Of a stretch of 60,023 nucleotides of DNA, positions 134 through 58,941 are shown piece by piece. The stretch comes from a virus (taxonomy: Duplodnaviria; Caudoviricetes). The stretch is from positions 1 to 60,023 of the IMG/VR virus record IMGVR_UViG_3300025280_000036, one strand, 5' to 3'. How positions within the stretch are numbered: the first letter of the stretch is position 1; every line of letters begins with the position of its first letter. Under the pieces are notes generated by a model. That model worked only from the letters and a program-made list of their open reading frames with translations, was not told the origin of the DNA and did not search any database. The translations under genes and the position numbers were made by a program.

Positions 134-153
134 GTCATGTCCTCCTAGTCGTT

Positions 154-243
154 CTAGTCGTTGAAATAAGTGATTGCTAAGGGAAGCAACACCACGCCCA
201 TTACAAAAAATGGTTCGGCAAAAAAATTCATAAAATCAATCAT
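154..243 (-). CDS. 29-aa single-TM micropeptide MIDFMNFFAEPFFVMGVVLLPLAITYFND
   Basis: GAGGACTAAACC-ATG start; the homolog at 58492-58590 differs mainly by synonymous changes. Confidence 0.8.
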   Translation of the reverse strand: MIDFMNFFAEPFFVMGVVLLPLAITYFND

Positions 244-246
244 GGT

Positions 247-909
247 TTAGTCCTCAGTAAGATCATGGCCCATAGCTATCAATGTTGGCCGAAAAAACCC
301 ATTGTTAAAGCGTGACATTTCATCTACCGTAGCTCCTGAAGCAATCGCTTCTGCTACTTTTTTCTTTTTTTCCTCAAAAGCCCGCTCGTGTGTCAATTCT
401 TGCACCCATTCCATCCACGTTCGCTCCTCAGAATAGCGCCATTGAATGTGGTTGCCCGAGGCTTTTTTTCTGCCGCCCCCGTCAAGGTGAATCCATCCGC
501 CTCGCAGAATCCCGGTGAATTCTTGCTGGCCCATCTTCGTTGGTCGGCGGCGCGATCCACCCCAAATCGTGAAGTGACCGCTTACCTTTCGACCTTCCTC
601 TGCCTTGGGCTTGCACTTAGCTGCGCCGCGGCGCTCATCACGTTCCGCCTCGGTCAGATCGTCCCAGCGTTCGACAAGGTATTCAACGTCGTAAAATTTG
701 ACCTCGTTGAACCAAGTGCCGCCAGAATGATGCCATTCAAACGACGGCCAGAAACCACTCTTGGCAAGGTACATCGCAAGCGTTCGTGTCTCCTTCCAGC
801 CACCTTCGCGCAGTAACTCGACGGTCCAGCGTGATAACGGGCGCACCCCATTGCTGTAGGCATCAATGGCGTTGTTGCTCATCCCAAAATCTAAGTCATA
901 GCCAGCCAT
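247..909 (-). CDS. Hypothetical early protein with a C-terminal 40-aa segment shared with virion protein 36430-38538
   Basis: GAGGAC RBS before ATG 909 (MAGYDLDFGMSNNA...); possible internal in-frame start at 414 with GAGGAG RBS. Confidence 0.8.
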   Translation of the reverse strand: MAGYDLDFGMSNNAIDAYSNGVRPLSRWTVELLREGGWKETRTLAMYLAKSGFWPSFEWHHSGGTWFNEVKFYDVEYLVERWDDLTEAERDERRGAAKCKPKAEEGRKVSGHFTIWGGSRRRPTKMGQQEFTGILRGGWIHLDGGGRKKASGNHIQWRYSEERTWMEWVQELTHERAFEEKKKKVAEAIASGATVDEMSRFNNGFFRPTLIAMGHDLTED

Positions 910-911
910 GT

Positions 912-1181
912 TTAGTCCTCTGAGTCGATTTGTAAATGGAGTTCGCCGTTGAAAAAAATAAACTTCGTGATCCATTTCGATTTTTCATGGTCAACAATTC
1001 TGTAGCCATTCTCGTCCTTTTTAAGCCGTCCATTTTTGTGCTTCTTGTACACATATTCTCGTTCCTGATACTCAAGCGATGACTCAGTGATCAGGTCTGA
1101 ATCTACAGTCATGCTGTACTTTGTCTGCACAAAATCCGCGACTGCCTCGATGACTTCGTAAGTTGATAAGCTAATTCTCAT
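912..1181 (-). CDS. Hypothetical early protein
   Basis: GAGGAC RBS, ATG 1181, directly 3' of the hammerhead cleavage site. Confidence 0.75.
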   Translation of the reverse strand: MRISLSTYEVIEAVADFVQTKYSMTVDSDLITESSLEYQEREYVYKKHKNGRLKKDENGYRIVDHEKSKWITKFIFFNGELHLQIDSED

Positions 1182-1202
1182 TTCATTTGTCCTCGTTTGG
1201 TT

Positions 1203-1267
1203 TTCCAAGACCGCTGACCTCTCCAGCGGTTTCGACTGATAACCAATCAGTTACTCGTCAGTTGGAA
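1203..1267 (-). ncRNA. Type I hammerhead ribozyme
   Basis: Minus strand: UUCCAA-CUGACGA-G(UA)ACUGAU-UGGUU-AUCAGU-C-GAAA-CCGCUG-GAGAGGU-CAGCGG-UC-UUGGAA. Canonical core, three stems, GUC cleavage triplet. Confidence 0.92.
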
Positions 1268-11221: not shown

Positions 11222-13687
11222 ATGGCGATTGAACGCCCGTTAGGGCAAAACCCTTTCCTGCCGTCACAGCCAGAAGCCGATCTGGAAATCGAGATCGTCA
11301 ACCCTGAATCGGTGTCGATGGAAACCCCTGATGGCGGTGTGGTCATTGACTTTGACCCCAACGCGATGGATCAGGGTGGTACCGAACATGACGCCAATTT
11401 GGCTGAATACATCGACGAATCGGAACTGAACGATATTTCTTCGGAGTTGGTTTCCGCCTATAAGTCAGACCGTGACAGCCGGGGCGACTGGGAAGAGACT
11501 TACGTCAACGGGCTGGATCTGCTCGGCCTTAAACACGCTGACCGCACCACTCCTTGGGATGGGGCTTGCGGGGTGTTTCACCCATTGCTGACCGAATCGG
11601 TGATTCGTTTTCAGGCGCAGGCGATTCAGGAACTGTTCCCGGCAGCAGGTCCGGTCAAGACCGCCGTGGTCGGGGCTTTGACCGTCGAAAAACAGCAACA
11701 GGCGAATCGGGTCAAGGATTACCTCAATTACCTGATCACTGAGCGCATGACCGAATACCGTTCCGAGACCGAGAAGATGCTGTTTTCGCTGCCGCTGGCC
11801 GGTTCGGCCTTTCGCAAGGTTTACGAAGATCCGAATCTGGGGCGTCCGTGCTCGATGTTTGTGCCTGCCGAGGATTTCGTGGTCAGTTACGGCGCGGCAG
11901 ACCTGACCACCTGCGAACGCGCCACCCATGTGATGAAGCGCAGCAAGAACGAAGTGCGTAAATTGCAGGTGTCGGGGTTTTTTCTCGACGTGGACTTACC
12001 CGCCCCCAGTCCCGATACCGGTGAGATAGAACGCAAATACAATCAGTTGACCGGGGATTCAGCCAACTACGACATGGATTCGCGGCACACCATTTTAGAG
12101 ATTCAGGTTGATCTGGATTTGCCGGGGTTTGAAGACACCGAGGGTGGCGAGCCGACCGGTATCGGTTTGCCCTACGTCGTAAGCATTGACAAGTCCTCAC
12201 GCATTGTTTTGGCGATCCGGCGCAACTGGTACGAAGACGATCCGCTGAAAATAAAGCGTGAGCATTTCGTGCATTACCAGTATTTGCCGGGACTCGGCTT
12301 TTACGGCTTCGGTTTGATCCACATGATCGGTGGGTTGGCGAAATCCGCCACCTCGTTGCTGCGGCAACTGGTCGATGCGGGGACTTTATCCAACTTACCG
12401 GGCGGTCTGAAGGCACGGGGACTGCGAATCAAGGGCGATGACACCCCGATCATGCCCGGAGAGTTCCGTGACGTGGACGTTCCGGGCGGCGTGATCCGCG
12501 ACAACATCAGTTTTCTGCCCTACAAGGAGCCATCCGCTGTTTTATACCAGTTGATGGGCGATATTGTGGAGGAAGGGCGTCGGTTTGCCTCGGCGGCGGA
12601 CGTGAAAGTGGCGGACATGAACGCCGAAGCGCCGGTTGGCACCACGTTAGCAATTTTAGAGCGCACCATGAAGGTGATGAGCGCGGTGCAAGCCCGCTTA
12701 CACGCCTCGATGCGTAAGGAATTGCGTATATTGTCGGGGATCGTGCGTGATTTCGGCCCAACCGAGTACCCGTATGAGTTGATAGGCGGTGAATTGACCC
12801 TTGAAGACTTCGATGATCGCGTGGATATCATCCCGGTCAGCGATCCGAACGCCGGAACGCTGGCACAACGCATCATGCAGTACCAAGCGGCACTGCAATT
12901 GGCGGCCCAAGCGCCTGATATGTACGATTTACCCCTGTTGCACCGGCAAATGCTGGAAGTTTTGGGGATTCGGGACACCGATGACATCATTCCCGACGAA
13001 GACGTGATCAGTCCGAGCGATCCGGTCACAGAGAACATGCATATCATCAACGGTGAGCCGATTAAAGCCTTTATTTATCAGGATCACGAGGCTCATATCC
13101 AATCTCACATAGCAATCGTGCAAGACCCCAAGATTATGGAGCTACTTAGCAAAAGTCCGACCGCTGAAGCCACTCAAGCGGCAATGGCGGCGCATATTTC
13201 CGAGCATGTGGCCTTCCAGTACCGCCGTGAGATCGAAAAAGAGCTTGGTGTGCCGTTACCACCGCCTGATGAGCCGTTGCCAGAGGATATCGAGTACCGT
13301 TTGTCGCAATTGGTGGCTCCTGCGGCTGAACAACTGCTTGGTAAGGATCAGCAAGAGGCTGAAATGCAGAAACAGCAGGAACAAGCCGAAGACCCCATCT
13401 TGCAAATGCAACGCCAAGAGCTTGAGATCAAGCAACAGCAGGCACAGGCCAAGGCGCAGGCCGAAATGGCAAAGATTAACCTCGACATGCAAAAAGCCGT
13501 CAGCAAGGATCAGTTGGAACGTGATCGGTTGGACTTACAAGAGCGTACTGATCGTGCTAAGTTGGGGGCCAAGATTGCCGCGGAGAACTCCAAGGAAGAA
13601 TTGGAAAGCCGTAAGATTGCTTCCAAGTCTGAAATTGAGGGAGCTAAAATTGGTGTCGGTATTGCCAAGGACTTGATGGGTGAGTAG
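11222..13687 (+). CDS. Portal protein
   Basis: 821 aa after terL; PWDGACGVFHPLL, LPLAGSAFRKVY, GLGFYGFGLIH; C-terminal coiled coil. Confidence 0.9.
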   Translation: MAIERPLGQNPFLPSQPEADLEIEIVNPESVSMETPDGGVVIDFDPNAMDQGGTEHDANLAEYIDESELNDISSELVSAYKSDRDSRGDWEETYVNGLDLLGLKHADRTTPWDGACGVFHPLLTESVIRFQAQAIQELFPAAGPVKTAVVGALTVEKQQQANRVKDYLNYLITERMTEYRSETEKMLFSLPLAGSAFRKVYEDPNLGRPCSMFVPAEDFVVSYGAADLTTCERATHVMKRSKNEVRKLQVSGFFLDVDLPAPSPDTGEIERKYNQLTGDSANYDMDSRHTILEIQVDLDLPGFEDTEGGEPTGIGLPYVVSIDKSSRIVLAIRRNWYEDDPLKIKREHFVHYQYLPGLGFYGFGLIHMIGGLAKSATSLLRQLVDAGTLSNLPGGLKARGLRIKGDDTPIMPGEFRDVDVPGGVIRDNISFLPYKEPSAVLYQLMGDIVEEGRRFASAADVKVADMNAEAPVGTTLAILERTMKVMSAVQARLHASMRKELRILSGIVRDFGPTEYPYELIGGELTLEDFDDRVDIIPVSDPNAGTLAQRIMQYQAALQLAAQAPDMYDLPLLHRQMLEVLGIRDTDDIIPDEDVISPSDPVTENMHIINGEPIKAFIYQDHEAHIQSHIAIVQDPKIMELLSKSPTAEATQAAMAAHISEHVAFQYRREIEKELGVPLPPPDEPLPEDIEYRLSQLVAPAAEQLLGKDQQEAEMQKQQEQAEDPILQMQRQELEIKQQQAQAKAQAEMAKINLDMQKAVSKDQLERDRLDLQERTDRAKLGAKIAAENSKEELESRKIASKSEIEGAKIGVGIAKDLMGE

Positions 13688-34725: not shown

Positions 34726-36430
34726 AGGCGGCGGCGGTCCACCTCCTACACAGGAGATGACAACTCAAACAAGTCGAATTCCTGAATTCGCTGAACCTTA
34801 TTTTCAGGAGATGATGGGTCGGGCGGCGTATGAAACGACGCGGCCTTATCAAGCGTATCCGGGGGAAAGACTCGCGGATTTCACCGCAGCGGAACGCGCC
34901 GGTCAGGCGGGCATGGCCGAAATGGCGGCTGCTGGGGCACCTCCAGAGATGGGCATGGCTTCGGATATTGCATCGCAAGTCGGTTATGGGCCGCAGATGT
35001 CGGCAATGCAGGTTGCCCAAGGGTTTCAGCCGCAGCAGGTTCGATCCGGTTACATGGCGGCGGATATTGATCCCGGTTATACCGCAGGTCAGTTGGGTCA
35101 GGGCTATCAGGCCGGTCAGCGGGACATGGGCTATCAGGCCGGTCAGTTTGACCCCGGTTATGCAGCCCGTGAACTAGGTCAGGACTATACCGCCAGAGAA
35201 TTAGAGGCGCAGTACACCGGGACAGGCGCACCTGCTGGGGCGCAGTTTGGTCCGGGGTTTGATCCCCGTTCCGTAACTGATGAAGGTGTTATTGAGCGGT
35301 ACATGGACCCGTTTCAGCGATTGGTAACCGATATTGAAAAGCGGGAGGCGCAGCGTCAATCGGATATTCAAGCGTCTGGTACGGCACAGCAGGCGGCACA
35401 GGCCGGGGGTTTGGGTGGCTACCGGGAGGCCATCATGCAGGCCGAACGCGAGCGCAATCTTGCGCAACAGATGGGTGATATCGAAGCGCGTGGAGGACAG
35501 GCGGCCTTTCAACAGGCCCAGCAAGCCTTTGAGGCGGACAGGGCTGCGAGATTGCAGGCCGGTCAATTAGGCTTGCAGACAGGTCAAGCAAGGGAGCAGG
35601 CTCTGCAACAGGCAGAGCAAATGCGCCAAGCAGCGTTTGGCACGTCCGAGGCGGCTCGTCAAGCACAGCAGCAGATGCAAACGGCGGCTTATCAGGCCGG
35701 GGAGCAGGCGAGACAGCAAGCCGGAGCGATGGGGCTTACCTCTCAACAGCAAGAAGATGCTGCTCGTCAGGCGGAGGAACAGTTTGGTCAGGCGCAATTT
35801 GCTCAGAATGAGCAGATGCGACAAGCCGAACAACAGGCCAATCAGGCTGCATATCAGGCTCAAGAGGAAGCGAGGCGGGAGGCTGGCCGACTCGGGTTAT
35901 CGGCGCAGGAGATTCAGGAGCGGGGCCGTCAGGCTGCCAATCAGGCGTATATGGAAGCCCAGCGGTTTAACGTGGAGCAGGGTTACAGGCAGGCTCAGTT
36001 GGGCATGGCCGGTTTGGGCGAGGATCGTGCAGTTCGGCAGCAGCGGTTGGAGGCGGCTCAACAGTTGGGCCAGTTTGGCGGCCAGCAGCAGCGTATGGCG
36101 TATGAGCGAATCCGTAATTTGCAGGCAATGGGTCAGGGGCAGCGTGAATTGGCCCAGCGTGGTTTGGATATTGGTTATCAGGATTTCCTGCGACAACGTG
36201 GGTATCCGCGAGAACAGTTGAGTTATTTGAGTAACCTGATTCAAGGGTTGCCATTAGCCCCAATGGGGCAACAAACACAAACCACGTATGGTGGCCCAAC
36301 CGGGATACAGCAAGCATTAGGTGCTGGGCTGGGTGGGGTAGGTTTGTATAACCAATTTCGTGGCGCTGGTGGTGGCCGCATTCCGGGGGTTACAGGTATT
36401 GGTTTGCATAGAGCGTTGAGGGCGGCCTGA
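34718..36430 (+). CDS. Ejection / DNA-transfer protein
   Basis: Q/A-rich coiled coil, YMDPF...V, DFLRQRGYP, Gly-rich C-terminus. Confidence 0.7.
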   Translation: MGKGGGGPPPTQEMTTQTSRIPEFAEPYFQEMMGRAAYETTRPYQAYPGERLADFTAAERAGQAGMAEMAAAGAPPEMGMASDIASQVGYGPQMSAMQVAQGFQPQQVRSGYMAADIDPGYTAGQLGQGYQAGQRDMGYQAGQFDPGYAARELGQDYTARELEAQYTGTGAPAGAQFGPGFDPRSVTDEGVIERYMDPFQRLVTDIEKREAQRQSDIQASGTAQQAAQAGGLGGYREAIMQAERERNLAQQMGDIEARGGQAAFQQAQQAFEADRAARLQAGQLGLQTGQAREQALQQAEQMRQAAFGTSEAARQAQQQMQTAAYQAGEQARQQAGAMGLTSQQQEDAARQAEEQFGQAQFAQNEQMRQAEQQANQAAYQAQEEARREAGRLGLSAQEIQERGRQAANQAYMEAQRFNVEQGYRQAQLGMAGLGEDRAVRQQRLEAAQQLGQFGGQQQRMAYERIRNLQAMGQGQRELAQRGLDIGYQDFLRQRGYPREQLSYLSNLIQGLPLAPMGQQTQTTYGGPTGIQQALGAGLGGVGLYNQFRGAGGGRIPGVTGIGLHRALRAA

Positions 36431-38538
36431 TGAATATTTTACAACAGGAAGATATGGTCAAGGGTCTTCCTGATGAAGCATTGATGCAGGAAGCGGAACA
36501 ACCCAGCGGGCAATTACCTCAATACCTGTTGATTTCCGAGGTTCAGCGCAGGGCTGATATGCGTAAACGGTATCAACAGCAAATGCAGGAAGCAGAGCCG
36601 ACCGTGGCCGAGCAGGTTTTACAGGAAGGCATTGCTGGTTTAGCTCCGCCACCTGAGCCAATGCAACAAGCCATGAATGGCGGTCAACCGCCAATGCAAC
36701 CGCCAATGAATGGTGCTCCTCAACAGATGCCTCCGGGAATGCCTCTACAGATGAATGGCGCTCCTCAACAGATGCCTCCGGGGATGAATGGCGGTTTTCC
36801 ACCACAATTTGAGACTCAAATGGCCTATCAGGGTGGTGTTGTAAGGATGAATGAAGGTAGTACGGTGGAACCTCCAAGGATGCTCCCGCTGATGAATGAA
36901 GAGGAAAAAAAGAAAAAAATAGCAGAAGCGATTGCTTTAGGAGCTACGGTAGAGCAAATAGGAAGTTTAAGCAGAGGCGCTTTTCGACCAACATTGATAG
37001 CTATGGGCTATGATCTTACTCCTGATGATTCTATTTCGGCAGGTGAGATGGCATCAATAGATGCTGCTCGTGATAATTTAGTTACAGAAATGCCTCCACA
37101 AATTGGGGCAGTTGCTGAGATTGGTCAATCGAATCAGTACGAGCCGGGACCTTACGCTAAAACTCAAAAAGAATTTTTAGAAAGATGGGAGAGCCGCCCC
37201 GGAGCGCCAACACCGAGAGAAATTGATTTGGGTGAGATTCCTCTGGATTGGCTGTCCAGAGGGGGAAGAGGGTCTTACGCTTCGCTAGGGTCTATGTTTG
37301 ATCCCAGTAGAGTAAAAGGATTGATTGCAACTGCGGAAGCTGCGGTCGATCCATCATTTGTTGTTGCGGCGGAGCAGCCAAAAATTGGAGGTAACTTGGT
37401 AGATACGGAGGGCAAACCAAAGGGTGCGATAATTGAAGATGCGCTTTCACTAATTGATACGTCTAGTTTTCCTAAACGCAGGGGGAAGCCTGAAACACTT
37501 TCTTCGGAATTTACGCAATTAAAGGGTGCTTCAGAAGAGTCAATTTCATTGGATGAACAAAGAGCAAATATAGCCAAGCAAAATGCGTTGCGGGATGAAA
37601 TGTTGAAGGAGGAAGCTGCTGGGGAAAATGGAGCGCCTGTATTGACTGAAAATGATATTGCACAACTTATATCAGGTAACCCTGATTCTCAAGATATGAC
37701 TCTTTTAGCACCTGAGATTCTTGCTGCGCAAGAAGAAGATCGGCAGCAGAATGCCGCCAATGTTGCCATTGCAAATAAGAGGAAAATGGCTGCCGCTAAA
37801 GCTGATGAGGATAAAGAAATTTCTCGGAGCAGTTTATTGAAAGCGTTAGGAGCATTAAAAAATAGAAAATCATCGATAGTGGATTATTCAGAATTGATAA
37901 AAAGTGGTGATGAACAAGCAAGGCAAGATGCTTTTTCTCAGATGCTGGTTAACCTTGGGGCTGGCATTGCTGCCGGTGATATGGCTCAGGGGTTAAGGGA
38001 CGCCGGAGAAGCTGTTGCAAAGACCAGAGGTAAGCAACGCGAATTGAGACAAGCTATGGAATTGGCGCAATTAAAGGGTGCTTCAGAGGCTGAAAAAGCT
38101 GACTTGGCGATGGAGCTTAGTATTATTGAAGCCCAATTAGGGGGGCTTCCTCCAGCAGCAGCCGCGATAACGCCATCTGAATTACAAAAAACATTGGCAG
38201 ATATGAATATTTTGAAGTCTCGGAATGAGGAAAATACGGATCATTATAAATACTTGGAGTCCAGAGTCGCCACTTTAACTAATCCTTCGGTGCAAAATGT
38301 TGTGGGTCCGGTTTTAATTAAAATGAAAGAGGTAGGTATGGATGGTCTCGATAAGGGTGAAAAAGATATTGTCAATAAATATTTTTCGGCTAATGATCTT
38401 GAACTAATATTAGAAACTCTTAGGAATCAGCCAAGAGAGGATGAAAGCGATGGCGGATTGCTTGCTGGCCTTGCACCCGCGCAGGCAAGCGGTGGCTTAG
38501 TGAAAGCGGCTGACGGGGTTTATCGGAGTGCGGGTTAA
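36430..38538 (+). CDS. Ejection protein
   Basis: Conserved-looking N-terminus, MNG-P repeats, position in the ejection block. Confidence 0.65.
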   Translation: MNILQQEDMVKGLPDEALMQEAEQPSGQLPQYLLISEVQRRADMRKRYQQQMQEAEPTVAEQVLQEGIAGLAPPPEPMQQAMNGGQPPMQPPMNGAPQQMPPGMPLQMNGAPQQMPPGMNGGFPPQFETQMAYQGGVVRMNEGSTVEPPRMLPLMNEEEKKKKIAEAIALGATVEQIGSLSRGAFRPTLIAMGYDLTPDDSISAGEMASIDAARDNLVTEMPPQIGAVAEIGQSNQYEPGPYAKTQKEFLERWESRPGAPTPREIDLGEIPLDWLSRGGRGSYASLGSMFDPSRVKGLIATAEAAVDPSFVVAAEQPKIGGNLVDTEGKPKGAIIEDALSLIDTSSFPKRRGKPETLSSEFTQLKGASEESISLDEQRANIAKQNALRDEMLKEEAAGENGAPVLTENDIAQLISGNPDSQDMTLLAPEILAAQEEDRQQNAANVAIANKRKMAAAKADEDKEISRSSLLKALGALKNRKSSIVDYSELIKSGDEQARQDAFSQMLVNLGAGIAAGDMAQGLRDAGEAVAKTRGKQRELRQAMELAQLKGASEAEKADLAMELSIIEAQLGGLPPAAAAITPSELQKTLADMNILKSRNEENTDHYKYLESRVATLTNPSVQNVVGPVLIKMKEVGMDGLDKGEKDIVNKYFSANDLELILETLRNQPREDESDGGLLAGLAPAQASGGLVKAADGVYRSAG

Positions 38539-38540: not shown

Positions 38541-41500
38541 ATGGGAACGGTTCGTGTAGAAGGTCTTGGCGAGGTTGAGATTGCAGGTGATACGCCTACC
38601 GTAGAGGAAGCAAGAAATATTTATGCATCTTTGCAGGAAAAAAAGTTAGAGCGTCCTCCAGATAAGGCACCTACACCTCCAGATAAACCTCCGGCCCCTC
38701 TTGCTAACGGTGAAGACCCTTCTGTTATAAAAGATATTCTTACTCAGGCCGTTGGTGGCGTTCGTGATGCCACTCAAAGTATTCTTAATTTAACAGCCAG
38801 ACCTGCTGCTTATCTTGAGGGTAAGCTTCCAACCACTGACAAACCGTTCAAACCGTTGACCCTACCTACTATTGCTCCGGCAAAAACCACAGGAGGAGGG
38901 GTAGCCAGAGGGCTTTCCCAATTTTTTGTGCCGTATTTAGGGGCGTTGAAAGTTTTGGGGGTTGGAAAAACATTTATTGGCACCTTGGCTAAGGCTGAAG
39001 GTGCGGCTGTTCTTACTGATCAGGCGGTCTTTGATCCGTTCGATCAAAAACTTTCTGATTTGGTTCAGTCAGTCCCTGCTTTACAGAATCCTGCTACGGA
39101 ATATTTACAAGCTGATGAAGATGATTCTGAGGCTGAAGCCAGATTCAAATTGGCTGTTGAAGGTATGGGATTGGGGGCTTTTGCTACAACTATCATTCAG
39201 TCTTTTAGGGGACTCAGATCACTCAAGAAAGGAAAGACAGAGCAAGGGATCAAGGAAGTTGACAAGGCTATCGAAGCTAGTCCAAAAATAGACCCGGTGG
39301 CATCGCCAAGAGAGGTTCTTGGGGATGACTATGCCGGGAATATACGAGTAGATAAATACAATACCACTGAAGATGTAAAACAGGGGATTCGTGATACTGC
39401 GGAAAAGAACGTGGGTAGGATAGACGAAGCAACACGCGGAACAATCACGACCGATCAATTAAAGGGACTAGCGCGAGAAGTAGGTTTAACTGTTGATGAT
39501 CTTTTAGATCGTGTTACAGGAGAGGCATGGAATGCAGAAGAGATATTAAGTGCTCGTATGATGATGTTAGCTTCTGCTATTAGGTTGCGTAATGCAGGAA
39601 AAGTAGCTTCAAAAACCGGGTTAGATGCTGATATCTTAAAAGTAAAAGATGCTCTTAATCTCCATGTTGGAATCCAAGAACAGGTATCTGGATTAGCTGC
39701 TGAAGCAGGTCGTGCGCTTAGACAATTTCGTCTAATAATTGGTGAAGGCAATGTAGAGGAATTATTGACTGCTGGAGGCGGGAAGAAAGCCATAAAAGAA
39801 ATAGCTGATCGTCTTGCTGTACTTGATCCAGAACTCGATATGGCGGTTTTTAATAATACGGCTAGGGTGCTTAATAAGCCAACCCTCATGGATAAATGGC
39901 TTGAGTTTTGGATCAACGGGTTACTTTCAGGACCGCAAACTCACGCGGTAAATTTTTTATCAAATGAATTAACATCGTTTTGGTCTATCCCAGAACATTA
40001 TCTGGCTGCCGGAATTGGTGCCATAAGAAAAACTCCAGAGAGGGTTACATTAGGAGAGGCTAATCATCGGCTTTATGGATGGCTCAAAGGACATCAGGAG
40101 GGCTGGGGTTTAGCCAAGAAAGCATTTATCACCGAAAGCCCGTCCGATATTTTTTCTAAATTGGAGCTTCCCAGAGAACGAGCAATAAAAGGCACACTTG
40201 GAAAGGTCATAAGATTACCCGGCAGGGCGTTGATAAGTTCTGATGAGTATTTTAAGTCGATTGGTTATCGGATGGAGCTTAACGCGCAAGCCTACAGGAG
40301 TGCTATTAAAGCTGGATTAAATCCGCGTTCAAGAGAATTTGCGGAATTTTTGGAAAAGATTAAAAATAATATCCCTGAAAATAAAAATCAAATAAAACAG
40401 GTGGCAAAAGAATTAGGGATGGGAGTTAGAGAATACAAAGCTCTGAAGAAAAAGATTTCCCTTAAAGCCACAGATAATGCCAGATACCTTACGTTCACTA
40501 AACCCCTTGAAGGCATTAGTGCTGACATTACATCTATACAGGCAAAAGCGCCAATTTCTAGGATGCTCATGCCATTTGTCAGAACTCCAACCAACATAGT
40601 CAGATTTGCCGCTGAAAGAACTCCTCTTGGATTGATGATGCGGGAAACGAAAAACGCCAAAGGAGCAGCAAAGGATGTGCAAATGGCTAAGATGGGGCTT
40701 GCGGCAGGGGCTGGTGCTCTCATCATGTCAATGGCAGGTCAAGGTAAAATAACCGGCTCCGGCCCAACCGATCCTAAAGCGCGCAGAGATATGTTGGATA
40801 CCGGCTGGCAACCTTATTCGTATGTTTATGAAGATGATGAAGGGAAGAAGCATTATTATTCCTACAAACGTATTGAACCGATGGGAATTTTGTTTGGCTT
40901 AACTGCGGATTTTCACGATATTGCTGGAGAAGTTCCAGATAAGGATGCAGATGAAATAGCGGCAGGTATTGTTGCTTCGATAAGCCAGAACCTTACCGAT
41001 AAGACTTTCTTTAAGGGGCTTGGTGATTTTTTCGAGGCTATGGGTAATCCAGACAGGCAGTTCACTGCCTACTTGCAGAATCTTAGCGGAACGATAGTAC
41101 CTTCTATTTTAGCTCAAACCACCAGAACCGTTGATCCTGTGTTAAGAGATACCAGATCATTTTTGAAAAGGATTAAATCGCGTATCCCCGGATGGTCCGA
41201 GACTCTTGAGGCAAGGCGCAATCTATGGGGAGAACGAATCATTCTGAGCGGGGGATTGGGTCCAGATATTATATCTCCTATTTATTCATCAGAATCAAAG
41301 AACGATCCGGTCGCCAATGAACTGGTCAGATTGGATTACCATCCTTCATTGCCGCAACGAACTCAAAGTGGTACAGAAATACCCGACAATTTGTATTGGC
41401 AATTTGTTGAAGACGCTGGCAAACCAGCGCATCAATTACTTGAAAGTATAATGGCACTGCCTGCATGGGAAGCGTTAAACAACAGACCTAGCGAACAAAA

Positions 41501-41693
41501 AGATATAATTAGAAAGGTTATTGATTTAACACGAAAGAACGCCCGACTTAAACTAAGAGTCGCAATGGGAGAATACTTGACTAAACAAGATAAGATTAAA
41601 ATAACAGAACAGTTAAAAATAGAAGGGCATTCTGAAGATAGCGCAGAGCAGTGGATTCGTGAAAATGTCAATAAAAAAACGGCAAGCCGGTAA
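38541..41693 (+). CDS. Large internal virion protein
   Basis: 1050 aa helical; LLSGPQTHAVN, PFVRTPTN, GWQPYS, YKRIEP motifs. Confidence 0.7.
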   Translation: MGTVRVEGLGEVEIAGDTPTVEEARNIYASLQEKKLERPPDKAPTPPDKPPAPLANGEDPSVIKDILTQAVGGVRDATQSILNLTARPAAYLEGKLPTTDKPFKPLTLPTIAPAKTTGGGVARGLSQFFVPYLGALKVLGVGKTFIGTLAKAEGAAVLTDQAVFDPFDQKLSDLVQSVPALQNPATEYLQADEDDSEAEARFKLAVEGMGLGAFATTIIQSFRGLRSLKKGKTEQGIKEVDKAIEASPKIDPVASPREVLGDDYAGNIRVDKYNTTEDVKQGIRDTAEKNVGRIDEATRGTITTDQLKGLAREVGLTVDDLLDRVTGEAWNAEEILSARMMMLASAIRLRNAGKVASKTGLDADILKVKDALNLHVGIQEQVSGLAAEAGRALRQFRLIIGEGNVEELLTAGGGKKAIKEIADRLAVLDPELDMAVFNNTARVLNKPTLMDKWLEFWINGLLSGPQTHAVNFLSNELTSFWSIPEHYLAAGIGAIRKTPERVTLGEANHRLYGWLKGHQEGWGLAKKAFITESPSDIFSKLELPRERAIKGTLGKVIRLPGRALISSDEYFKSIGYRMELNAQAYRSAIKAGLNPRSREFAEFLEKIKNNIPENKNQIKQVAKELGMGVREYKALKKKISLKATDNARYLTFTKPLEGISADITSIQAKAPISRMLMPFVRTPTNIVRFAAERTPLGLMMRETKNAKGAAKDVQMAKMGLAAGAGALIMSMAGQGKITGSGPTDPKARRDMLDTGWQPYSYVYEDDEGKKHYYSYKRIEPMGILFGLTADFHDIAGEVPDKDADEIAAGIVASISQNLTDKTFFKGLGDFFEAMGNPDRQFTAYLQNLSGTIVPSILAQTTRTVDPVLRDTRSFLKRIKSRIPGWSETLEARRNLWGERIILSGGLGPDIISPIYSSESKNDPVANELVRLDYHPSLPQRTQSGTEIPDNLYWQFVEDAGKPAHQLLESIMALPAWEALNNRPSEQKDIIRKVIDLTRKNARLKLRVAMGEYLTKQDKIKITEQLKIEGHSEDSAEQWIRENVNKKTASR

Positions 41694-43283: not shown

Positions 43284-43543
43284 TGGATATCGCAAATGTT
43301 GTCAGCGAGTACGGTTTTCCTATCGTGGCGACGGTGGGTCTGTTGTACATGATTTATTTTATCTGGCAATTCATCACCCATCAGATCAAGAAGAAACTGT
43401 CAGAGGCGAATGTTACTTTGGTGGCACTCATTGACCGGATTCGGATGTTGGACAACGACATCATAAGGCTGCAACAGAAACTCGATACCGTCATTGAATT
43501 GCGGGAAGCAAAGGCGGAACAGAATGAAATGGATAAGGATTAG
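43283..43543 (+). CDS. Single-TM coiled-coil protein
   Basis: EYGFPIV...DIIRLQ. Confidence 0.75.
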   Translation: MDIANVVSEYGFPIVATVGLLYMIYFIWQFITHQIKKKLSEANVTLVALIDRIRMLDNDIIRLQQKLDTVIELREAKAEQNEMDKD

Positions 43544-44015
43544 TTTGCTGCTGGTGCTTTCTCCGGCTTTATCTTATTCGTCTGAGTTGGTTCACAAGTT
43601 CGGTAGCCCTAGTTTCAACGGGATCAATCAATCGGCCCATTACCTGACCATTGATGAGCAGGAAAGAACCCGCTCAGAGAAAGTTGCTGCGGATATCCAA
43701 GATGCCTTGGACGAGGCTGAACGTGAGGCGGATAACACCACGCTTGCCAAGTTCCTGCGTAATCTTGAGTCGAGGATTTATTCAACACTCGCCAAGGACA
43801 TTTCAGAATCGCTGTTCAATTACGACAACATCCCCACAAGCGAGAACCCCATCGTCGGGAGAATCAATCTCGAAGGCAATATCCTTACGTGGCTTAACGA
43901 TGGAACCAGCATTACGCTCACCATCGAGGAATGGTTCGACGGGCTTCTGATCTCAACCACTGAGATCGTGATTCCTGTAGGTTCTTTCGGAGGGTGTCTG
44001 ACAGACTGTGAATGA
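43524..44015 (+). CDS. csgF: Curli assembly protein CsgF
   Basis: Signal peptide, SELVHKFGSPSFNG, FLRNLESRIYSTLA...LF, TEIVIP. Confidence 0.85.
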   Translation: MKWIRISLLLVLSPALSYSSELVHKFGSPSFNGINQSAHYLTIDEQERTRSEKVAADIQDALDEAEREADNTTLAKFLRNLESRIYSTLAKDISESLFNYDNIPTSENPIVGRINLEGNILTWLNDGTSITLTIEEWFDGLLISTTEIVIPVGSFGGCLTDCE

Positions 44016-44857
44016 TGAAGCACTTATTCTTGTTAGCCGTGTTGCTTGCCGTGGGTTGTGCGCCTATTGGCATGGGCAAAAGAAATGAAGATTGCAGTTC
44101 TCTTACGGCGTGTATTGAGGGTCCGCAGATCGTACCCAGTGCAGCCCAGCAGTTACTAAACCTGCCGCCTCCTAAGAACAAGGCGGTGGTGGCGGTATAC
44201 AGTTTCACCGACAAGACGGGACAACGAAAGTCCAACGACAACCTAGCCAGCTTCAGCACCGCAGTTACCCAAGGCGGTGTGGATATCCTGATTGAGGCGT
44301 TGAAGGACGCAGGCCGGGGTAATTGGTTTGCGGTGGTGGAAAGAGCAGGGCTGGACAGCCTGACCCGAGAACGACAGCTTATCAAGAACACCCGGCAGAC
44401 CTACGCCGGGGAGGGGGAGAATGTCCTCAAGCCGTTGCTCTATGCCGGGTTGATCCTTGAAGGTGGCATTTCGTTTTACGACACGAACCTGCGAACCGGT
44501 GGTAACGGGGCTAGGTTCTTAGGTATCGGGGCGATGAACCAGTACCGCGAAGACAAGGTGACGGTAATTCTGCGAGCAATACTGGTACAAACCGGGGAAG
44601 TGTTGCTGAACGTGACGGCCACGAAAACCATCCTGTCCACCGGCAGGGGCACCGACCTGTTCAGGTTCTACGAACAGGGTACTGAACTGGTTGAGATCGA
44701 GAGCGGCAGCACCGAGAACGAACCGGTGGGTCATGCCGTCAGAGCAGCTATCGAGGCGGCGGTGTACGGGCTGGTGATTCAAGGTCTGGAAAGGCAGGTC
44801 TGGGACTTCGATTATGCTAAACTGGTGCGGGAGGATAACGATGAAAGTTCTTCTTAA
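44012..44857 (+). CDS. csgG: Curli secretion channel CsgG (outer-membrane lipoprotein)
   Basis: LAVGC lipobox; VAVYSFTDKTGQRK, FSTAVTQG, WFAVVERAGLDSLTRERQLI, EGGISFYD, GIGA..QYRED. Confidence 0.95.
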   Translation: MMKHLFLLAVLLAVGCAPIGMGKRNEDCSSLTACIEGPQIVPSAAQQLLNLPPPKNKAVVAVYSFTDKTGQRKSNDNLASFSTAVTQGGVDILIEALKDAGRGNWFAVVERAGLDSLTRERQLIKNTRQTYAGEGENVLKPLLYAGLILEGGISFYDTNLRTGGNGARFLGIGAMNQYREDKVTVILRAILVQTGEVLLNVTATKTILSTGRGTDLFRFYEQGTELVEIESGSTENEPVGHAVRAAIEAAVYGLVIQGLERQVWDFDYAKLVREDNDESSS

Positions 44858-45518
44858 ATTGTTGATGCTATTGGTTCCGGCGGTTGTGCTTGGAGCCAAC
44901 AACGATATATACATAACCCAGACAGGAACGGGCCTTACATTGACCATCGACCAGATCGGGGCGAGCAACAAGGTTGGAACCTCGCAGGCCAGAGTTATTT
45001 TGGGTGGCACCAGCATGACCGTTGATCTGGATCAGATCGGTGACACCAACGTCATCGCTGCAAGCATCTTACAAGGCAACTCATCCAGTTGGACATACAA
45101 AGCAACGGGTGATAGCAACGTGGCTACCCTCGCAGTCGGGGCAACCGGGGATTCTGCCAGTTCGGATTTCGACTTCGAGGCCACAGGCGACAGCAACGTG
45201 CTCACGTTCACCCAAGGTGACGCAGCAACAGCCACGGCAGGTAATCAGGATTTCGCTGTGACAGGCACGTCAAACGATCTGAACGTCAAATGCAACGTCA
45301 TCGGCTGTATCAACAACTGGACTGTCTCAGGGAACAGCAACGATATCGATACGTTGCAATCAGGGCGACAGGATCACGACATCACCATATCCCTTACCGG
45401 TTCTTCAAATAATGTTGACGTGGATCAAACCGACACGGCCAGCACCAATGTGGCTAACATCATTTCAACAACGAGCAACGGCGTCATCAACGTGGATCAA
45501 TGCGCCAGTGGCTGTTAA
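44841..45518 (+). CDS. Secreted curlin-like beta-solenoid protein 1
   Basis: Signal peptide; repeated xQxGxxN / GxSN units. Confidence 0.75.
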   Translation: MKVLLKLLMLLVPAVVLGANNDIYITQTGTGLTLTIDQIGASNKVGTSQARVILGGTSMTVDLDQIGDTNVIAASILQGNSSSWTYKATGDSNVATLAVGATGDSASSDFDFEATGDSNVLTFTQGDAATATAGNQDFAVTGTSNDLNVKCNVIGCINNWTVSGNSNDIDTLQSGRQDHDITISLTGSSNNVDVDQTDTASTNVANIISTTSNGVINVDQCASGC

Positions 45519-46585
45519 GTTTACTGTTCGTTGGTGCAGCCCATGCGGCAGGCATTGGGGAGATATCTGAGTTAAAGGGTGTCGGTGAGATCACCCGTAA
45601 GGATTCCGACGCTGCATTCCTAGCTGAACTCGCTTCCGATATTTTCTCTTTCGATGATGTCACGACCGGCAACGGTCGCATGGCAATCCAGTTTCTCGAT
45701 TCTTCTACGCTGAAGTTAACAGAGCACTCTAAGGTGGTCATTGATGAATACATCTATGACCCCGATCCCAGCAAGACCAAGCTGGCCCTGAACATGGCGT
45801 CAGGTACGGCCCGGTTTATCACGGGTGCTTTGGCGAGGATCAACAAGAACAACATTTCCATTCGCACCCCCAGTGCCACCATCGCTATCAGGGGCACGGA
45901 CTTCACCACCACGGTTGACGAGCTTGGCCGCTCGCTGATCATCCTGCTGCCTGATCCTGATGGCACCTCCTCGGGGGAGATTTCAGTGACCACATGGTCG
46001 GGGACGGAAATTCTCAACCAGCCCTTCCAGGCCACGATGGTGTCAACCTTTGAGTCACGGCCTACCAAGGCCGTCACCCTTGGCAACATCACGCTTGATC
46101 TGATCGACAACATGCTGATCATCAACAAGCCGCCTGCCATTGTGCAAGCAGAGGCAGAGCAGAGCGGTGAGGTAAAGACCGATCTCGACAGGGATTTCTT
46201 TGAGGATGCTCCCGATCTGGATAAGGATTTTCTTGAGATTGAAGAGGAAATCAGCAGGCTGGATATTGACCTGTTAAGTTTTGATTTTCTGGTGGATTTA
46301 TTAGCAATCGTTGAGACTGGCAGTAAGAAGAAAACCACGTCTGGTGGTGAGCTACAGGGCGTGGAACTGACCGGGATCATCCCCGGTTTTGATCCGACCT
46401 ACCAGACTTATACCTTTGTCGAAGGGATGTATGTGTATTTTGTTCACCAAGGAACCAACACGTTTGATATAGCCTTGGACAAGGAAGCAGCAGCTTACCT
46501 GAGCATAAATTCTTTTGGCGTTCCGATGGAGATAGAGGTCAATGGCGCGGGCGATAATACTATCGTTATTTTTCAGTCTCCTTAG
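45500..46585 (+). CDS. Periplasmic FecR-domain protein
   Basis: Signal peptide; DDVTTGNGRMAIQFLDSSTLKLTEHSKVVID...GTARFITG...TPSATIAIRGTDF. Confidence 0.88.
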   Translation: MRQWLLSLLFVGAAHAAGIGEISELKGVGEITRKDSDAAFLAELASDIFSFDDVTTGNGRMAIQFLDSSTLKLTEHSKVVIDEYIYDPDPSKTKLALNMASGTARFITGALARINKNNISIRTPSATIAIRGTDFTTTVDELGRSLIILLPDPDGTSSGEISVTTWSGTEILNQPFQATMVSTFESRPTKAVTLGNITLDLIDNMLIINKPPAIVQAEAEQSGEVKTDLDRDFFEDAPDLDKDFLEIEEEISRLDIDLLSFDFLVDLLAIVETGSKKKTTSGGELQGVELTGIIPGFDPTYQTYTFVEGMYVYFVHQGTNTFDIALDKEAAAYLSINSFGVPMEIEVNGAGDNTIVIFQSP

Positions 46586-47339
46586 TCTGGCACATGCAGG
46601 TGATAACCTGATCACCATTCAGACCAAGGGCAGTGGTACAACCATAACGACCAAGCAGATTGGCAGCAGCAATATCACGGGCGTCTATTGTGGGCTGGGC
46701 AGCTTCGACAATTCACTGGTCAATACTCATAATTGTGATGACGCGACCATCACATCAGTAGTTGATGGTGTATCGAACGTCGTGTACTCGCAATCGGTAT
46801 GGTCAAATCATTCCGATCAAAGCTGGATCACAACCGTTACCGGGACTGACAATTACGCGGTGATCGATATGGATGAATCAGGTAGCACGTCAAGGATCAC
46901 CCAGATTGGCAATGATAATCAGGCATGGATTCTGGGTTCAGGTGTTGACAACGTATACAAAACCGAACAAACCGGCGACGACATGTACGCCAAAATTATC
47001 TCGTTCGCTGATGACAGCGACATCTGGATCACGCAGGAAGGCAGCGGTGATCACAATGCCTACGTCTATAACTCCGGGAGTGCTCATCGCAACGACACCC
47101 GATTGATCCAGAAAGGGTCGGGTAACAAAGATGCCGATGTGTTCTGGTACGGCGCAGACGATGGCGATTTAACGCTTACCCAGCAAGGCAATGGATCACA
47201 TACCTCGCTCATCAAATTTTATACGGACGACTACGATGTCACTGTCGTCCAAAAAGGGACCACCAACAAGGCTTACTCAGCTACGTTTAATTGTGTAAGT
47301 AATTGCGACAAAACCATCAGCATCACGCAACAGAATTGA
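46542..47339 (+). CDS. Secreted curlin-like beta-solenoid protein 2
   Basis: Signal peptide; ITQIGNDNQA, ITQEGSGDHNA, IQKGSGNK, LTQQGNGSH repeats. Confidence 0.75.
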   Translation: MARAIILSLFFSLLSLAHAGDNLITIQTKGSGTTITTKQIGSSNITGVYCGLGSFDNSLVNTHNCDDATITSVVDGVSNVVYSQSVWSNHSDQSWITTVTGTDNYAVIDMDESGSTSRITQIGNDNQAWILGSGVDNVYKTEQTGDDMYAKIISFADDSDIWITQEGSGDHNAYVYNSGSAHRNDTRLIQKGSGNKDADVFWYGADDGDLTLTQQGNGSHTSLIKFYTDDYDVTVVQKGTTNKAYSATFNCVSNCDKTISITQQN

Positions 47340-49120
47340 AAATCCTGCTCCCAATTTTGCTGGCGTTGTTGTTGCTGCGGGTGTTCGATCCGTTCCCGGT
47401 GGAGACCCTTAGACTAAAATACTTCGATGCGCTGCTCACCATCAAAGAGCCCGTCCAGAGCAAAACGATTTCCCTGTACAACATCGATGAAGCGGCACTG
47501 GCTGAAGGAGGGCAATGGCCGTGGCCTCGCCAGCAACTGGCGGCTCTCAATGATCAATTGCTTGATGCAGGTGCAGTGGCAGTGGTCTACTCTGTGTTGT
47601 TTCCTGAAACAGATCGATTCGGCGGGGACGCGGAATTTGCCGAGAGCATGGGCCAAGTTCCTACCTTCCTCTCGGCGGTAGCGACTGCCGACACTGACAG
47701 GCAGGAAGGCTGGCACATCGGGGTCACCACGATGGGGCCGGTCGAAGAACACGTTCTGAGCTATCCCGGCATCCTGCCGAATGTTGATGTACTTCAGCAA
47801 GCGGCGGCTGGTACCGGGATCGTCAACACTGCCGCGGAGGTGGATGGGCTGGTGCGGAGGGTACCGATGCTGGTGAAGGTTGGGGAGAGCCTCTACCCGG
47901 CCCTTGGGCTGGATGTGCTGCGTGGGCTGGCGGGTGACCCTTCTTATCAAGTAAAAGCCGCTCAGAGCGGCATACAGACCGTTAGAGTGCCTAATTACAG
48001 CACCATCGAGACCGATAGCTCTGGTAGGGTGTGGGTCGATTGGAACACGACGTTTTCTCCAGAACCCCTAGCAGGCACCATCGTCTTCGTGGGGGCTACC
48101 GCAGCCGGGGTTTCCCCTGTTGTTTCAACCCCAAGACTTGGGATGCATCCGCATCAGGTTCAAGCAAACCTGTTTGAGACCCTGCTGAACGGCACGTCGC
48201 CGGTACGCCCGGACTGGGCGCTGGGTGCTGAAATATTGGTTGTCCTGATTTTTGGCCTTTTCACAGCGTGGTCAGTGCGTTATTTGCCTGTTTTGGTTGT
48301 ACCAGTAGGGGTCATTGGGATCGGCGCTCTAGCGGCCTCTGCCAGCGTCTGGGGCTATCTAAGTTTAGGCATTCTGGTTGATGCTGCATTTCCGGTACTT
48401 TCTAGCCTCACAATCGGTGGAACGGGTGTAGCTCAGAGAATGATCAGTGAATATCGCCAGAAATTGCAGATCAAGGGGATGTTTGGAACGTATGTCAGCC
48501 CCAAGCTGGTTCAGCAATTGGTGGACGATCCATCCTTGATGAAGCTCGGCGGCGATACCAAGACCATGAGTTTTCTGTTTTGTGATATCGTTGGCTTCAC
48601 CCCTATCTCGGAGCATTTCAAAAACAACAACGATCCGCAGGGACTTGTCACCCTCATCAACCGTTTGCTGTCTGCCTTAACCGATGTGGTGCTGTCCCTC
48701 GATGGCACCATAGACAAGTACATGGGCGATTGTGTGATGGCGTTCTGGAACTCACCTGTGGATTGTCCCGACCATGAGGAAAGGGCTGTGACTTGTGCTG
48801 CCATGATGCTGGTCGCGCTTGAACATCTCAATGAGGAACTTGAACTTGAGGGATTACCAAAATTAGGCATTGGTGTCGGGCTTAACACTGGGCCAGCAGT
48901 CGTGGGAAATATGGGGGGCAAGCAGCGTTTCGATTACTCAGCTATCGGGGATAGCGTGAACGTGGCTGCTCGCTTGGAAAGCAGTTCAAGAAAGTATTCC
49001 GAAGATGTTTTGATTGGCGAGGCGACAGCCAAAGCTGTGCCTGAGTTGGTGAAATATTTGGATTCAATTCAAGTTAAAGGTAAAGAGGAACGGTTAGAGG
49101 TTTATACATTGCGTAACTAA
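47336..49120 (+). CDS. CHASE2-domain membrane adenylate cyclase (class IIIb)
   Basis: IDE...GQWPWPR...LFPETDRFGGD, DGLVRRVP; 3-4 TM; FCDIVGFT, DKYMGD, YSAIGDSVNVAARLE, VKGK; TTG start overlaps the previous stop. Confidence 0.93.
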   Translation: MKILLPILLALLLLRVFDPFPVETLRLKYFDALLTIKEPVQSKTISLYNIDEAALAEGGQWPWPRQQLAALNDQLLDAGAVAVVYSVLFPETDRFGGDAEFAESMGQVPTFLSAVATADTDRQEGWHIGVTTMGPVEEHVLSYPGILPNVDVLQQAAAGTGIVNTAAEVDGLVRRVPMLVKVGESLYPALGLDVLRGLAGDPSYQVKAAQSGIQTVRVPNYSTIETDSSGRVWVDWNTTFSPEPLAGTIVFVGATAAGVSPVVSTPRLGMHPHQVQANLFETLLNGTSPVRPDWALGAEILVVLIFGLFTAWSVRYLPVLVVPVGVIGIGALAASASVWGYLSLGILVDAAFPVLSSLTIGGTGVAQRMISEYRQKLQIKGMFGTYVSPKLVQQLVDDPSLMKLGGDTKTMSFLFCDIVGFTPISEHFKNNNDPQGLVTLINRLLSALTDVVLSLDGTIDKYMGDCVMAFWNSPVDCPDHEERAVTCAAMMLVALEHLNEELELEGLPKLGIGVGLNTGPAVVGNMGGKQRFDYSAIGDSVNVAARLESSSRKYSEDVLIGEATAKAVPELVKYLDSIQVKGKEERLEVYTLRN

Positions 49121-57718: not shown

Positions 57719-58072
57719 TCAATTCACTCCTCTCTCTTCATCTTCTAGGACTTTCTTGATAGCTTGGTTTCGGGGAGTCTTGCCTAGATGTCGCAGAGCG
57801 AAATAAGCCATCAGTTGATCAACCTCAAACTTTTTCAGCTTCAGAATCCTATAAATAACAATGCTTACATCTTCGCTCATGTCTCCGATCTGCGGGTCAA
57901 CCATAGGCGAACCATCAAGCTCACCAAGTAACATATGAATGAACCTTTTCCTTTCTTCACGATTATAATCAGCCATAGCATTGTCGAAGTTAATGCTTTT
58001 GTATCCCCTGAACGAACCGTCCGGGTTCTTCACTTCTTCCATATCGTCAAAATTTTCTATTCTCGGCTTCAT
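57719..58072 (-). CDS. Hypothetical protein
   Basis: GGAGG RBS; N-terminus duplicated at window start. Confidence 0.75.
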   Translation of the reverse strand: MKPRIENFDDMEEVKNPDGSFRGYKSINFDNAMADYNREERKRFIHMLLGELDGSPMVDPQIGDMSEDVSIVIYRILKLKKFEVDQLMAYFALRHLGKTPRNQAIKKVLEDEERGVN

Positions 58073-58482
58073 GTCATGTCCTCCTTCGGTTTAGTGCTCT
58101 GTTGCCTTAACTTCACTGACTCGATCAGTTCAACAGCATTGATGCGTCCCGTTTTGAGTCGTGCAAGATCGGTCTCACAGATATGTATCGGTGAACAATC
58201 GAAATCGTCCAGAGCAACCAAGTCATCCCGTAATTTTTTTAGATGCTCAAGCCCCTGATCACCGAGATTATCTAGTGCCAGTTCGCCTTCAATCAATTCC
58301 TGACCTCCTTCATCGTAGGTAAGGTCAGCGATAGCGTGATTGATGAGATATTGAATCAGGCTTAGATCATCCTCACTGAGCGACAATTCGTTTTCGTTGT
58401 CACCACCAGCTATGATTTTCGTTGTCACCACCAAGGTCGCATAAGAGTCATCCTGCTCGTCGGTTTTTTCATTCCATTTCAT
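58069..58482 (-). CDS. Acidic hypothetical protein (absent from allele A)
   Basis: GAGG RBS, D/E-rich. Confidence 0.7.
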   Translation of the reverse strand: MKWNEKTDEQDDSYATLVVTTKIIAGGDNENELSLSEDDLSLIQYLINHAIADLTYDEGGQELIEGELALDNLGDQGLEHLKKLRDDLVALDDFDCSPIHICETDLARLKTGRINAVELIESVKLRQQSTKPKEDMT

Positions 58483-58602: not shown

Positions 58603-58935
58603 TCAATAATTAAAACACGCTCGTACTTCGCCAAAGTCCACGATGCACAGGTCAGTACGAGGTTGACCTTTACGCAACTGCGCTGATCCGATTTCGATAA
58701 GGGCTTTGATCGCATCTGGTGGCGTCTGAGCATCCAGCCGACGGAGATGGGCACGAGGATATTGAACATACTTTCTCGTCACCCCTCCTTCTCTCCACTT
58801 CTGTCGGCTTGTCTGGAAATCCTCAATCGTGTCTCGCGTAAAGACCAGATCATCGACAGTTACATCAAAAGCGCCGAAGTAGTGTTTAAAGACTGCTTCA
58901 ATCTGTTCATCGGATAGTGGGATATTGTTTCTCAT
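58603..58935 (-). CDS. Hypothetical protein
   Basis: GAGGAC RBS; paralog of 56792-57301. Confidence 0.7.
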   Translation of the reverse strand: MRNNIPLSDEQIEAVFKHYFGAFDVTVDDLVFTRDTIEDFQTSRQKWREGGVTRKYVQYPRAHLRRLDAQTPPDAIKALIEIGSAQLRKGQPRTDLCIVDFGEVRACFNY

Positions 58936-58941
58936 GTTGGT

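Follow-up and report, generated by a model that had tools for sequence, protein, structure and literature searches.

Short fragments of high identity shared by two otherwise unrelated proteins are the mark of recently emerged fragment mosaicism in phage proteins, which has been described across functional classes (Smug et al., Nat Commun 2023, PMC10684548). The main text of that article, the part considered here, names receptor-binding proteins, endolysins, neck proteins and replication proteins, and the terms "ejection" and "internal virion" occur in it 0 times. The shuffling of phage protein fragments is mostly known from distant genomes, where the donor, the junctions and the age cannot be recovered. 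The locus described here lies in the IMG/VR virus contig IMGVR_UViG_3300025280_000036, which was analysed over its entire 60,023 nt and is called the window below. Gene A (247..909, minus strand, long allele) encodes an accessory protein of 220 aa in the early/replication arm, made of a core and a captured tail, and the tail repeats a segment of gene B (36430..38538, plus strand), which codes for a presumed internal virion (ejection) protein of 702 aa and is the source of the copy. Alignment of the alleles shows an in-frame intragenomic capture of a gene B-family module into gene A, a dispensable gene of the early arm. As in the published cases, two otherwise unrelated proteins share a short and recent fragment of high identity across functional classes; the fragment is local, and it is missing from four of the six members of the gene A cluster and from 14 of 14 aligned homologues. 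In contrast with the cases in that main text, donor and recipient are here found in one genome, on opposite strands, and the pre-insertion alleles still circulate. The capture is an instance of known fragment mosaicism, unusual in being intragenomic, in leading from an ejection protein to an early-arm accessory protein, and in that the empty site has been preserved. Ocean metagenomes of the present day still contain the donor and recipient genes, the empty site, the precise 171-nt insert and an allele that has evolved further, and base-level reconstruction of the event is therefore possible.

The ejection proteins of podoviruses (gp14, gp15 and gp16 of T7; gp7, gp20 and gp16 of P22) are described as mosaically conserved by Swanson et al. 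(2022, PMC8954989). Gene B is similar to these proteins in its place among the large late genes, beside a gene that matches phrog_6651, and in its invariant N-terminal module followed by a variable middle. It differs from the known ejection proteins in that it has no sequence or profile match to a solved one and is known here from the gene alone. A protein directed against ejection proteins has also been described, given that SieA of P22 is a phage-encoded inner-membrane protein that acts on gp16 and gp20 of incoming phages (Leavitt et al. 2024, PMC10883804, in its account of SieA). On that account, SieA is made inside the cell and acts on ejection proteins, and is therefore a precedent for reading the tail of gene A as a decoy, comparable in outcome and not in form. 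Gene A, unlike SieA, carries a copy of the module of its would-be target and has no long hydrophobic stretch, as read directly from the sequence with no membrane-helix predictor. A SieA-type protein was rejected as a candidate for gene A, which lacks a hydrophobic span and is modelled as a compact alpha/beta core with a helical tail. The internal proteins of T4 carry a short, portable capsid targeting peptide that decides their packing into the head and their injection, and this targeting sequence is an N-terminal peptide of about 10 residues that is removed by the prohead protease. It offers a precedent for reading gene A as virion cargo. A targeting sequence of the T4 type was itself rejected, since the module described here has about 40 residues and is C-terminal in gene A and internal (residues 158-197) in gene B.

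A preliminary description of the window had reported that the reverse complement of 256-375 aligns with 36901-37020 without gaps and in frame, with 18 mismatches of which 14 are central. A base-by-base count gives the same figures, with 102 of 120 nt identical (85%), and the peptides of the two copies are also as they had been written. Comparison of the window with itself by BLASTN recovers the repeat at E 6.9e-34 (2.8e-32 in a second run). It is the sole long inverted repeat of the window, the other three pairs being of 31-34 nt at 71-76%. The 14 central mismatches fall in codons 18-27 of the copy, which correspond to window positions 295-324 and to 36952-36981 of gene B. This divergent central patch (295..324, minus strand), where 14 of 30 nt differ from gene B, encodes the second helix of the module, and the flanks on its two sides are identical at 49 of 51 and 37 of 39 nt. 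At the nucleotide level, helix 1 and the C-terminal peptide are thus 95-96% identical between the copies and helix 2 is 53% identical, and no stretch of exact identity exceeds 21 nt. The reading frame is common to both copies, whose peptides share 29 of 42 residues; 14 codons differ, 12 of them non-synonymously and two synonymously. Within the patch the hydrophobic positions change conservatively (M/I, F/L) and the remaining positions change freely. When the proteins of gene A (P0001) and gene B (P0002) are compared by BLASTP, the match is confined to a segment of 29-42 residues with 62-69% amino acid identity. Patterns built on FRPTL, AMGxD and the GAT motif occur in no further open reading frame (ORF) of at least 80 aa in the genome, apart from a single chance LVAMG in the tail spike. 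The pair was also considered as template and variable repeat of a diversity-generating retroelement and rejected, since in either copy the 18 mismatches affect all four bases and are not confined to adenine; no reverse transcriptase was found among the subset of ORFs scanned.

Two amendments concern the extent of gene A, whose ORF opens at 975, and the separation of the copies, which had been given as 36 kb. The start is most likely ATG 909 rather than 975 (ORF 247..975), because the database form of the protein (P0003, which starts at M23) begins there and because the conservation of DNA with contig L007 begins at this ATG. The copies are about 36.5 kb apart one way and about 21.4 kb the other way on the circular map, given that the contig wraps a genome of about 57.9 kb.

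The tail is the product of a 171-nt (57-codon) in-frame insertion (265..435, minus strand, GC 0.444) that defines the long allele and sits five codons before the stop of gene A, as delimited by the DNA alignment of the window with metagenome contigs L006 and L007. L006 is identical to the window over the whole locus. L007 holds the empty site, where TGGCGC runs directly into GATATTAAAAAGGACTAA, and the loci are otherwise 97-100% identical, with few differences in the flanking genes. The insert begins with a 60-nt leader (376..435, minus strand; YSEERTWMEWVQELTHERAF), which contains GAGGAG at 424-429 followed by ATG at 412-414, and continues into the copy of the gene B segment (256..375, minus strand; EEKKKKVAEAIASGATVDEMSRFNNGFFRPTLIAMGHDLT). 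The share of the insert derived from gene B is 111 of 171 nt, or 120 nt when the 9-nt junction that matches both partners is counted. These last 9 nt of the copy (256-264, GATCTTACT) agree with gene B and also share six of nine positions with the ancestral GATATTAAA, and may plausibly be a microhomology junction. The GC content of the copy (0.408) is close to that of the gene B segment (0.400), and the core of gene A stands at 0.561. No source of the leader was found in the window (blastn-short, tblastn), among 1.84 billion representative proteins, or by a word-indexed search. A third state of the locus occurs in a marine run of 2014 (X18), in which the left junction at 436 is shared and 257-435 is replaced by 339 other letters, with homology resuming over 154-256.

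L007 also differs from the window in other ways. Over L007:400-1717 it has an extra insert of 223 nt between the upstream gene and gene A, and the 117-aa gene found after gene A in the window is missing from it, so that several independent cassette differences exist within 1.7 kb. Downstream of gene A, a conserved hydrophobic ORF of 29 codons (154..243, minus strand) recurs at 58516-58596 (89%) and in L007. Its GAGGA ribosome-binding site overlaps the final E-D-stop codons of gene A (GAGGACTAA), and these codons are kept in all gene A alleles because they double as the ribosome-binding site of this ORF. The ORF marks a cassette boundary and appears to be a conserved linker at which early-gene cassettes are exchanged.

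The 90% cluster of gene A has six members, of which two are long (220 aa, with tail) and four are short (163-165 aa, 96% identical), the short alleles ending in ...HIHWRDIK[E/K]D. The exact 220-aa sequence (P0003) is present on 34 contigs; three short forms are on one or two contigs each, and a fourth short form, from Tara, was not counted. The second long allele (P0246) reads AMGYDLTED, with the Tyr of gene B where the window has His. On these comparisons the insertion is a recent one, since it is still missing from alleles about 96% identical.

An assembly chimera at either site had been named as an outcome that would speak against the repeat, and it is contradicted by L006 and by contigs of two sequencing runs. 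A contig of run X3 (a run of 2025 that was not flagged as a possible source) spans 98-1300 and one of run X14 spans 237-1300, both across the insert and with 0 differences, and in both runs the gene B copy sits on separate contigs with the flanks of gene B. The locus occurs in 20 runs from 18 studies; 12 of these runs are possibly from the source campaign, and no RNA run is listed for the locus. The long allele is not an assembly chimera. The other objection, that the segment might be a widespread independent domain, fares no better, given that phmmer of the 59-residue tail against the same 1.84 billion representatives returned two matches, of which gene B is the only real one. The second, P0259 (2265 aa), was rejected as a relative of the tail, since it is repetitive and probably a spurious ORF and its score is the sum of nine weak repeats. 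A word-indexed search of longer proteins with the tail returned, out of 10 candidates, gene A alone.

The core of gene A (residues 1-158; 436..909, minus strand) is homologous to a family of proteins of about 160 aa. The 122 homologues have 149-216 aa and cover about 65% of the query, and the aligned sets (14 and 7 sequences) stop at ...GNHI.W, with the tail in none of them. The 30 homologues drawn from the two ends and the centre of the list likewise stop near residue 183 and are tail-less. The core has a relative in BFVD, A0A1B1INS6, which is 53% identical. Gene A has no match in Pfam, PHROG or NCBIfam, and its label as an early gene is one that we infer from position. No close relatives were found in viral contigs, by protein or by a 41-nt core pattern; the family was found in none of the 10 related phage records, five of which are 78-100% and five 65-74% complete; and against cultured phages no useful match came from megablast of 1-8000 or from tblastn of P0001 and P0002. 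Around gene A, 0 promoter-like sites and one terminator-like site were detected, below the means of shuffled sequence.

The direction of the transfer can be read from the family of gene B. Its members share a near-invariant N-terminal module (residues 1-65), a P/Q-rich linker that ends in GG.VRMQ, and a highly variable middle. The source segment (residues 158-197; 36901..37020, plus strand) directly follows the module and the linker. The gene B cluster has 13 members, and the segment does not vary among the 10 that span 36901-37020. Of 120 gene B homologues, 34 carry a strict pattern, h..hh..G[AV][ST]..[DEQ]h, in the corresponding position, where shuffled sequences would give 0.5. These homologues represent about seven lineages, for example QAIASGATAADLLSIF and NMLIESGVSTEDIISII. 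Looser helix-GAT-helix forms exist in further viral loci, and the strict pattern is present in one of 46 viral loci. On this distribution the helix-GAT-helix motif is native to the gene B family. The transfer is, on the same comparisons, from gene B to gene A, because the motif recurs in the gene B family, the gene A family is tail-less, and the GC content breaks at the insert. The capture within one genome that the preliminary description had proposed is in this way upheld by pre-insertion alleles, by homologues of gene A that lack the tail, and by a motif that belongs to the family of gene B.

Gene B lies in the late block, directly upstream of a gene for a 1050-aa internal virion protein (38541..41693, plus strand) that matches phrog_6651, "internal virion protein", at E 1.9e-57. 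Upstream of this neighbour and on the same strand are the genes for terminase, portal, capsid and tail spike. The gene B protein has no Pfam, PHROG or NCBIfam match of its own, and a profile search against the PDB gave no match. A match to phrog_2534, which is annotated "released from the phage upon host infection", is seen in two of 10 family members, with a best E of 4.6e-5, and one homologue carries the transglycosylase domain PF01464. The linker of gene B contains a short tandem coding repeat (36655-36777) that gives a low-complexity stretch rich in P, Q and M, and a second one (33492-33626) gives a proline-rich low-complexity stretch in another large late protein; the two are repeat families D17 and D10.

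Structure models were obtained with AlphaFold2 for gene A (54 sequences), where the mean predicted local distance difference test (pLDDT) score was 87.5, and for residues 1-260 only of gene B (32 sequences), where it was 61.6. Gene A is predicted to have a compact alpha/beta core, with pLDDT mostly 90-98, and a tail made of a long helix (165-190), a GAT turn and a short helix (195-203), with block means of 72-87; its final 17 residues are of low confidence. In the model of gene B, helices at 157-169 and 174-181 have block means of 77-91 over 151-180, and residues 185-201 fall below 50. Both proteins are thus predicted with a confident helical hairpin followed by a low-confidence, near-identical peptide, FRPTLIAMG[H/Y]DLT, which suggests that the module may be a small folded hairpin joined to a linear docking peptide. 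In the VIA wide structural list the matches were helical hairpins of a generic kind, which fitted the tail (best Z 5.4), and the search gave no fold for the core. The predicted complex of gene B residues 140-215 with the tail of gene A (P0003 155-220) scored 0.02, where the mark is 0.34, and is evidence neither way.

The explanation that we favor, to which we give a probability of roughly 45%, is that the tail has been retained as a functional docking module. Illegitimate recombination or template switching would have created the insertion, with GAT.TTA microhomology at one junction. The fusion would then be translated, and would be retained because, with the tail, gene A gains the specificity with which the ejection-protein module docks. 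The near-identical parts, helix 1 and FRPTLIAMG[H/Y]DLT, would bind the partner of gene B itself, and the early protein would be brought to the ejection or assembly machinery, or would compete with an incoming ejection protein. In support of a functional tail, the copy keeps the frame and the strand sense of its source, which has a chance of 1 in 6, and it contains no stop codon. A more specific version, in which gene A with its docking module is virion cargo that addresses itself, or an intracellular decoy that jams the ejection of superinfecting siblings, with the diverged helix 2 tuning its specificity, is improbable as it stands. The role as a decoy or mimic of an injected protein, raised in the preliminary description, would be conjecture throughout. 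If the tail is functional, it marks a portable module of about 40 residues in the poorly understood ejection proteins of marine podoviruses, and the comparison of long and short alleles would be a handle on the partner of the module. If it is not, the locus is a textbook case of a recombination scar tolerated in a cassette hot spot.

Several observations weigh against a retained docking module. The 12 non-synonymous and two synonymous changes are indistinguishable from neutral drift. A second copy of any part of a gene B homologue was found, at the DNA or protein level, in 0 of five related records (78-100% complete), and the capture is a one-off. Other strains have short alleles, the 339-nt replacement or, as at the far end of the contig, no gene A, and the existence of tail-less strains and of strains without gene A means that the tail is dispensable. 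The closest homologues of gene B (P0124-P0126, 44-59% identity) have other sequence at the position of the segment. That gene B is an ejected protein is deduced from its position and from weak family links. The leader and the divergent patch are sourceless, so that a third, unsampled donor is possible. The function of the tail is itself one that we infer, for a protein whose core has neither a family nor a fold match: Foldseek against the PDB gave none at E <= 0.001 for the core, and the protein atlas gave no usable match.

Some of these observations are what would be expected if the tail were a neutral or near-neutral scar of cassette shuffling in the early region, tolerated at the extreme C terminus of a dispensable protein. 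Junction 436 carries three states, short, with the 171-nt insert, and with 339 other letters, and is thus a mosaic hot spot; strain variants swap whole genes; the ratio of non-synonymous to synonymous changes fits neutrality; and none of the five related records shows a recurrence. However, the long allele is the one most often sampled, the frame and the sense of the source have been preserved, the changes are clustered in one helix with the hydrophobic positions conserved, and the hairpin is still confidently predicted. A scar is for these reasons unlikely, though to be taken seriously. Both copies might instead go back, each on its own, to an unsampled third allele of the gene B family in a co-infecting relative, an explanation that concerns the origin of the tail and not its function. 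It would account for the contrast between the central 30 nt, 53% identical, and flanks at 95-96%, for the sourceless leader, and for the reading "IASGAT" in the tail, as in the distant homologue P0176, where the resident gene B has "IALGAT"; the middle of the gene B family is moreover mosaic, and its closest homologues lack the motif. Against such an origin, the 10 gene B alleles that cover the segment do not differ there and no other allele surfaced in the family, phmmer or word searches, which makes it quite improbable.

The insert could also be a small gene of its own, in which case GAGGAG and ATG 414 would drive a 55-aa peptide and the fusion would be incidental, or both products would be made. 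The internal start had been pointed out in the preliminary description, and the site is indeed as good as those of the real genes of this phage, with a 9-nt spacer and a frame of 55 codons to the same stop. A strong Shine-Dalgarno hexamer with a start is rare: the two strands of the window together have 22 distinct start positions of this kind, many of which belong to real genes. The gene at 57717 reportedly has this layout of GAGGAG, 9 nt and ATG, and the first 21 nt of the leader resemble a translated ribosome-binding region. Separate translation of the peptide is therefore credible from the letters of the site. As a gene in its own right, however, the insert has no free-standing homologue among the 1.84 billion representatives or in the word search and its frame is continuous with gene A, and this explanation is very improbable. 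It is still harder to credit that the inverted copies are kept as a recombination substrate, for programmed inversion or as a donor for gene conversion, both of which had been suggested. The copies are indeed inverted repeats, and the Tyr of P0246, shared with gene B, may be a trace of conversion or the ancestral state; beyond this hint nothing speaks for a conversion donor. A crossover would truncate both genes, cutting gene B and joining the core of gene A to the C-terminal two-thirds of gene B, and the longest exact run is only 21 nt. The features of an inverton or shufflon come down to the orientation found on the X3 and X14 contigs, where each copy sits between the flanks that belong to it, although rare forms are not visible in contigs. 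A retained docking module remains the reading that we prefer.

The window is classed as linear, with a CheckV completeness estimate of 100%, and its ends overlap imperfectly: 1-146 matches 57940-58085 at 99% identity, 169-249 matches 58516-58596 at 89%, and 1178-1645 matches 59555-60023 at 78-96%. The far end swaps 250-1177 for other genes (58603..59331) and has an extra gene at 58069..58482. This pattern of overlaps indicates that the assembly circled a genome of about 57.9 kb once and then entered a strain variant, and the record is therefore not one clonal genome. The diverged end copies (1-1645 and 57940-60023) hold different gene cassettes between conserved blocks.

The late genes are on the plus strand over 8421-49120 and include terminase, portal, capsid, a tail spike with an S74 chaperone domain, and large virion proteins. 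A minus-strand arm runs across the contig ends with a helicase, an exonuclease, a methyltransferase and many small ORFs, and the primase-helicase gene (54741..56501, plus strand) lies inside the span of this otherwise minus-strand arm. The portal protein (11222..13687) is 40-46% identical to those of the Pelagibacter phages HTVC027P and HTVC023P and the Roseobacter phages CRP-901 and CRP-902. By its gene sequences, the phage is an uncultured marine podovirus-like (short-tailed) phage of about 58 kb related to the Pelagibacter phages HTVC023P/027P.

Within the phage there is a curli (type VIII secretion) cluster at 43494-49120, with CsgF (43494..44015), CsgG (44012..44857), curlin-repeat proteins at 44814..45518 (below the Pfam cut-off) and 46542..47339, FecR (45500..46585), and a protein with CHASE2 and adenylate/guanylate cyclase domains (47303..49120). 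The same arrangement is reported for uncultivated pelagiphages of the HTVC023P type (PMC9599517). An element of about 45 nt (family D9) occurs five times between minus-strand early genes (3515-3559, 3891-3935, 4765-4809, 5595-5639 and 6258-6302). On the minus strand each copy reads as a GC-rich stem-loop and then a run of T, which suggests that these elements may be intrinsic terminators or cassette-boundary hairpins. The tail spike (22783-25968, 1061 aa) contains many internal repeats with a period of 51 nt (families D1-D5, D8, D11, D12 and D18) and ends in a C-terminal Peptidase_S74 chaperone domain.

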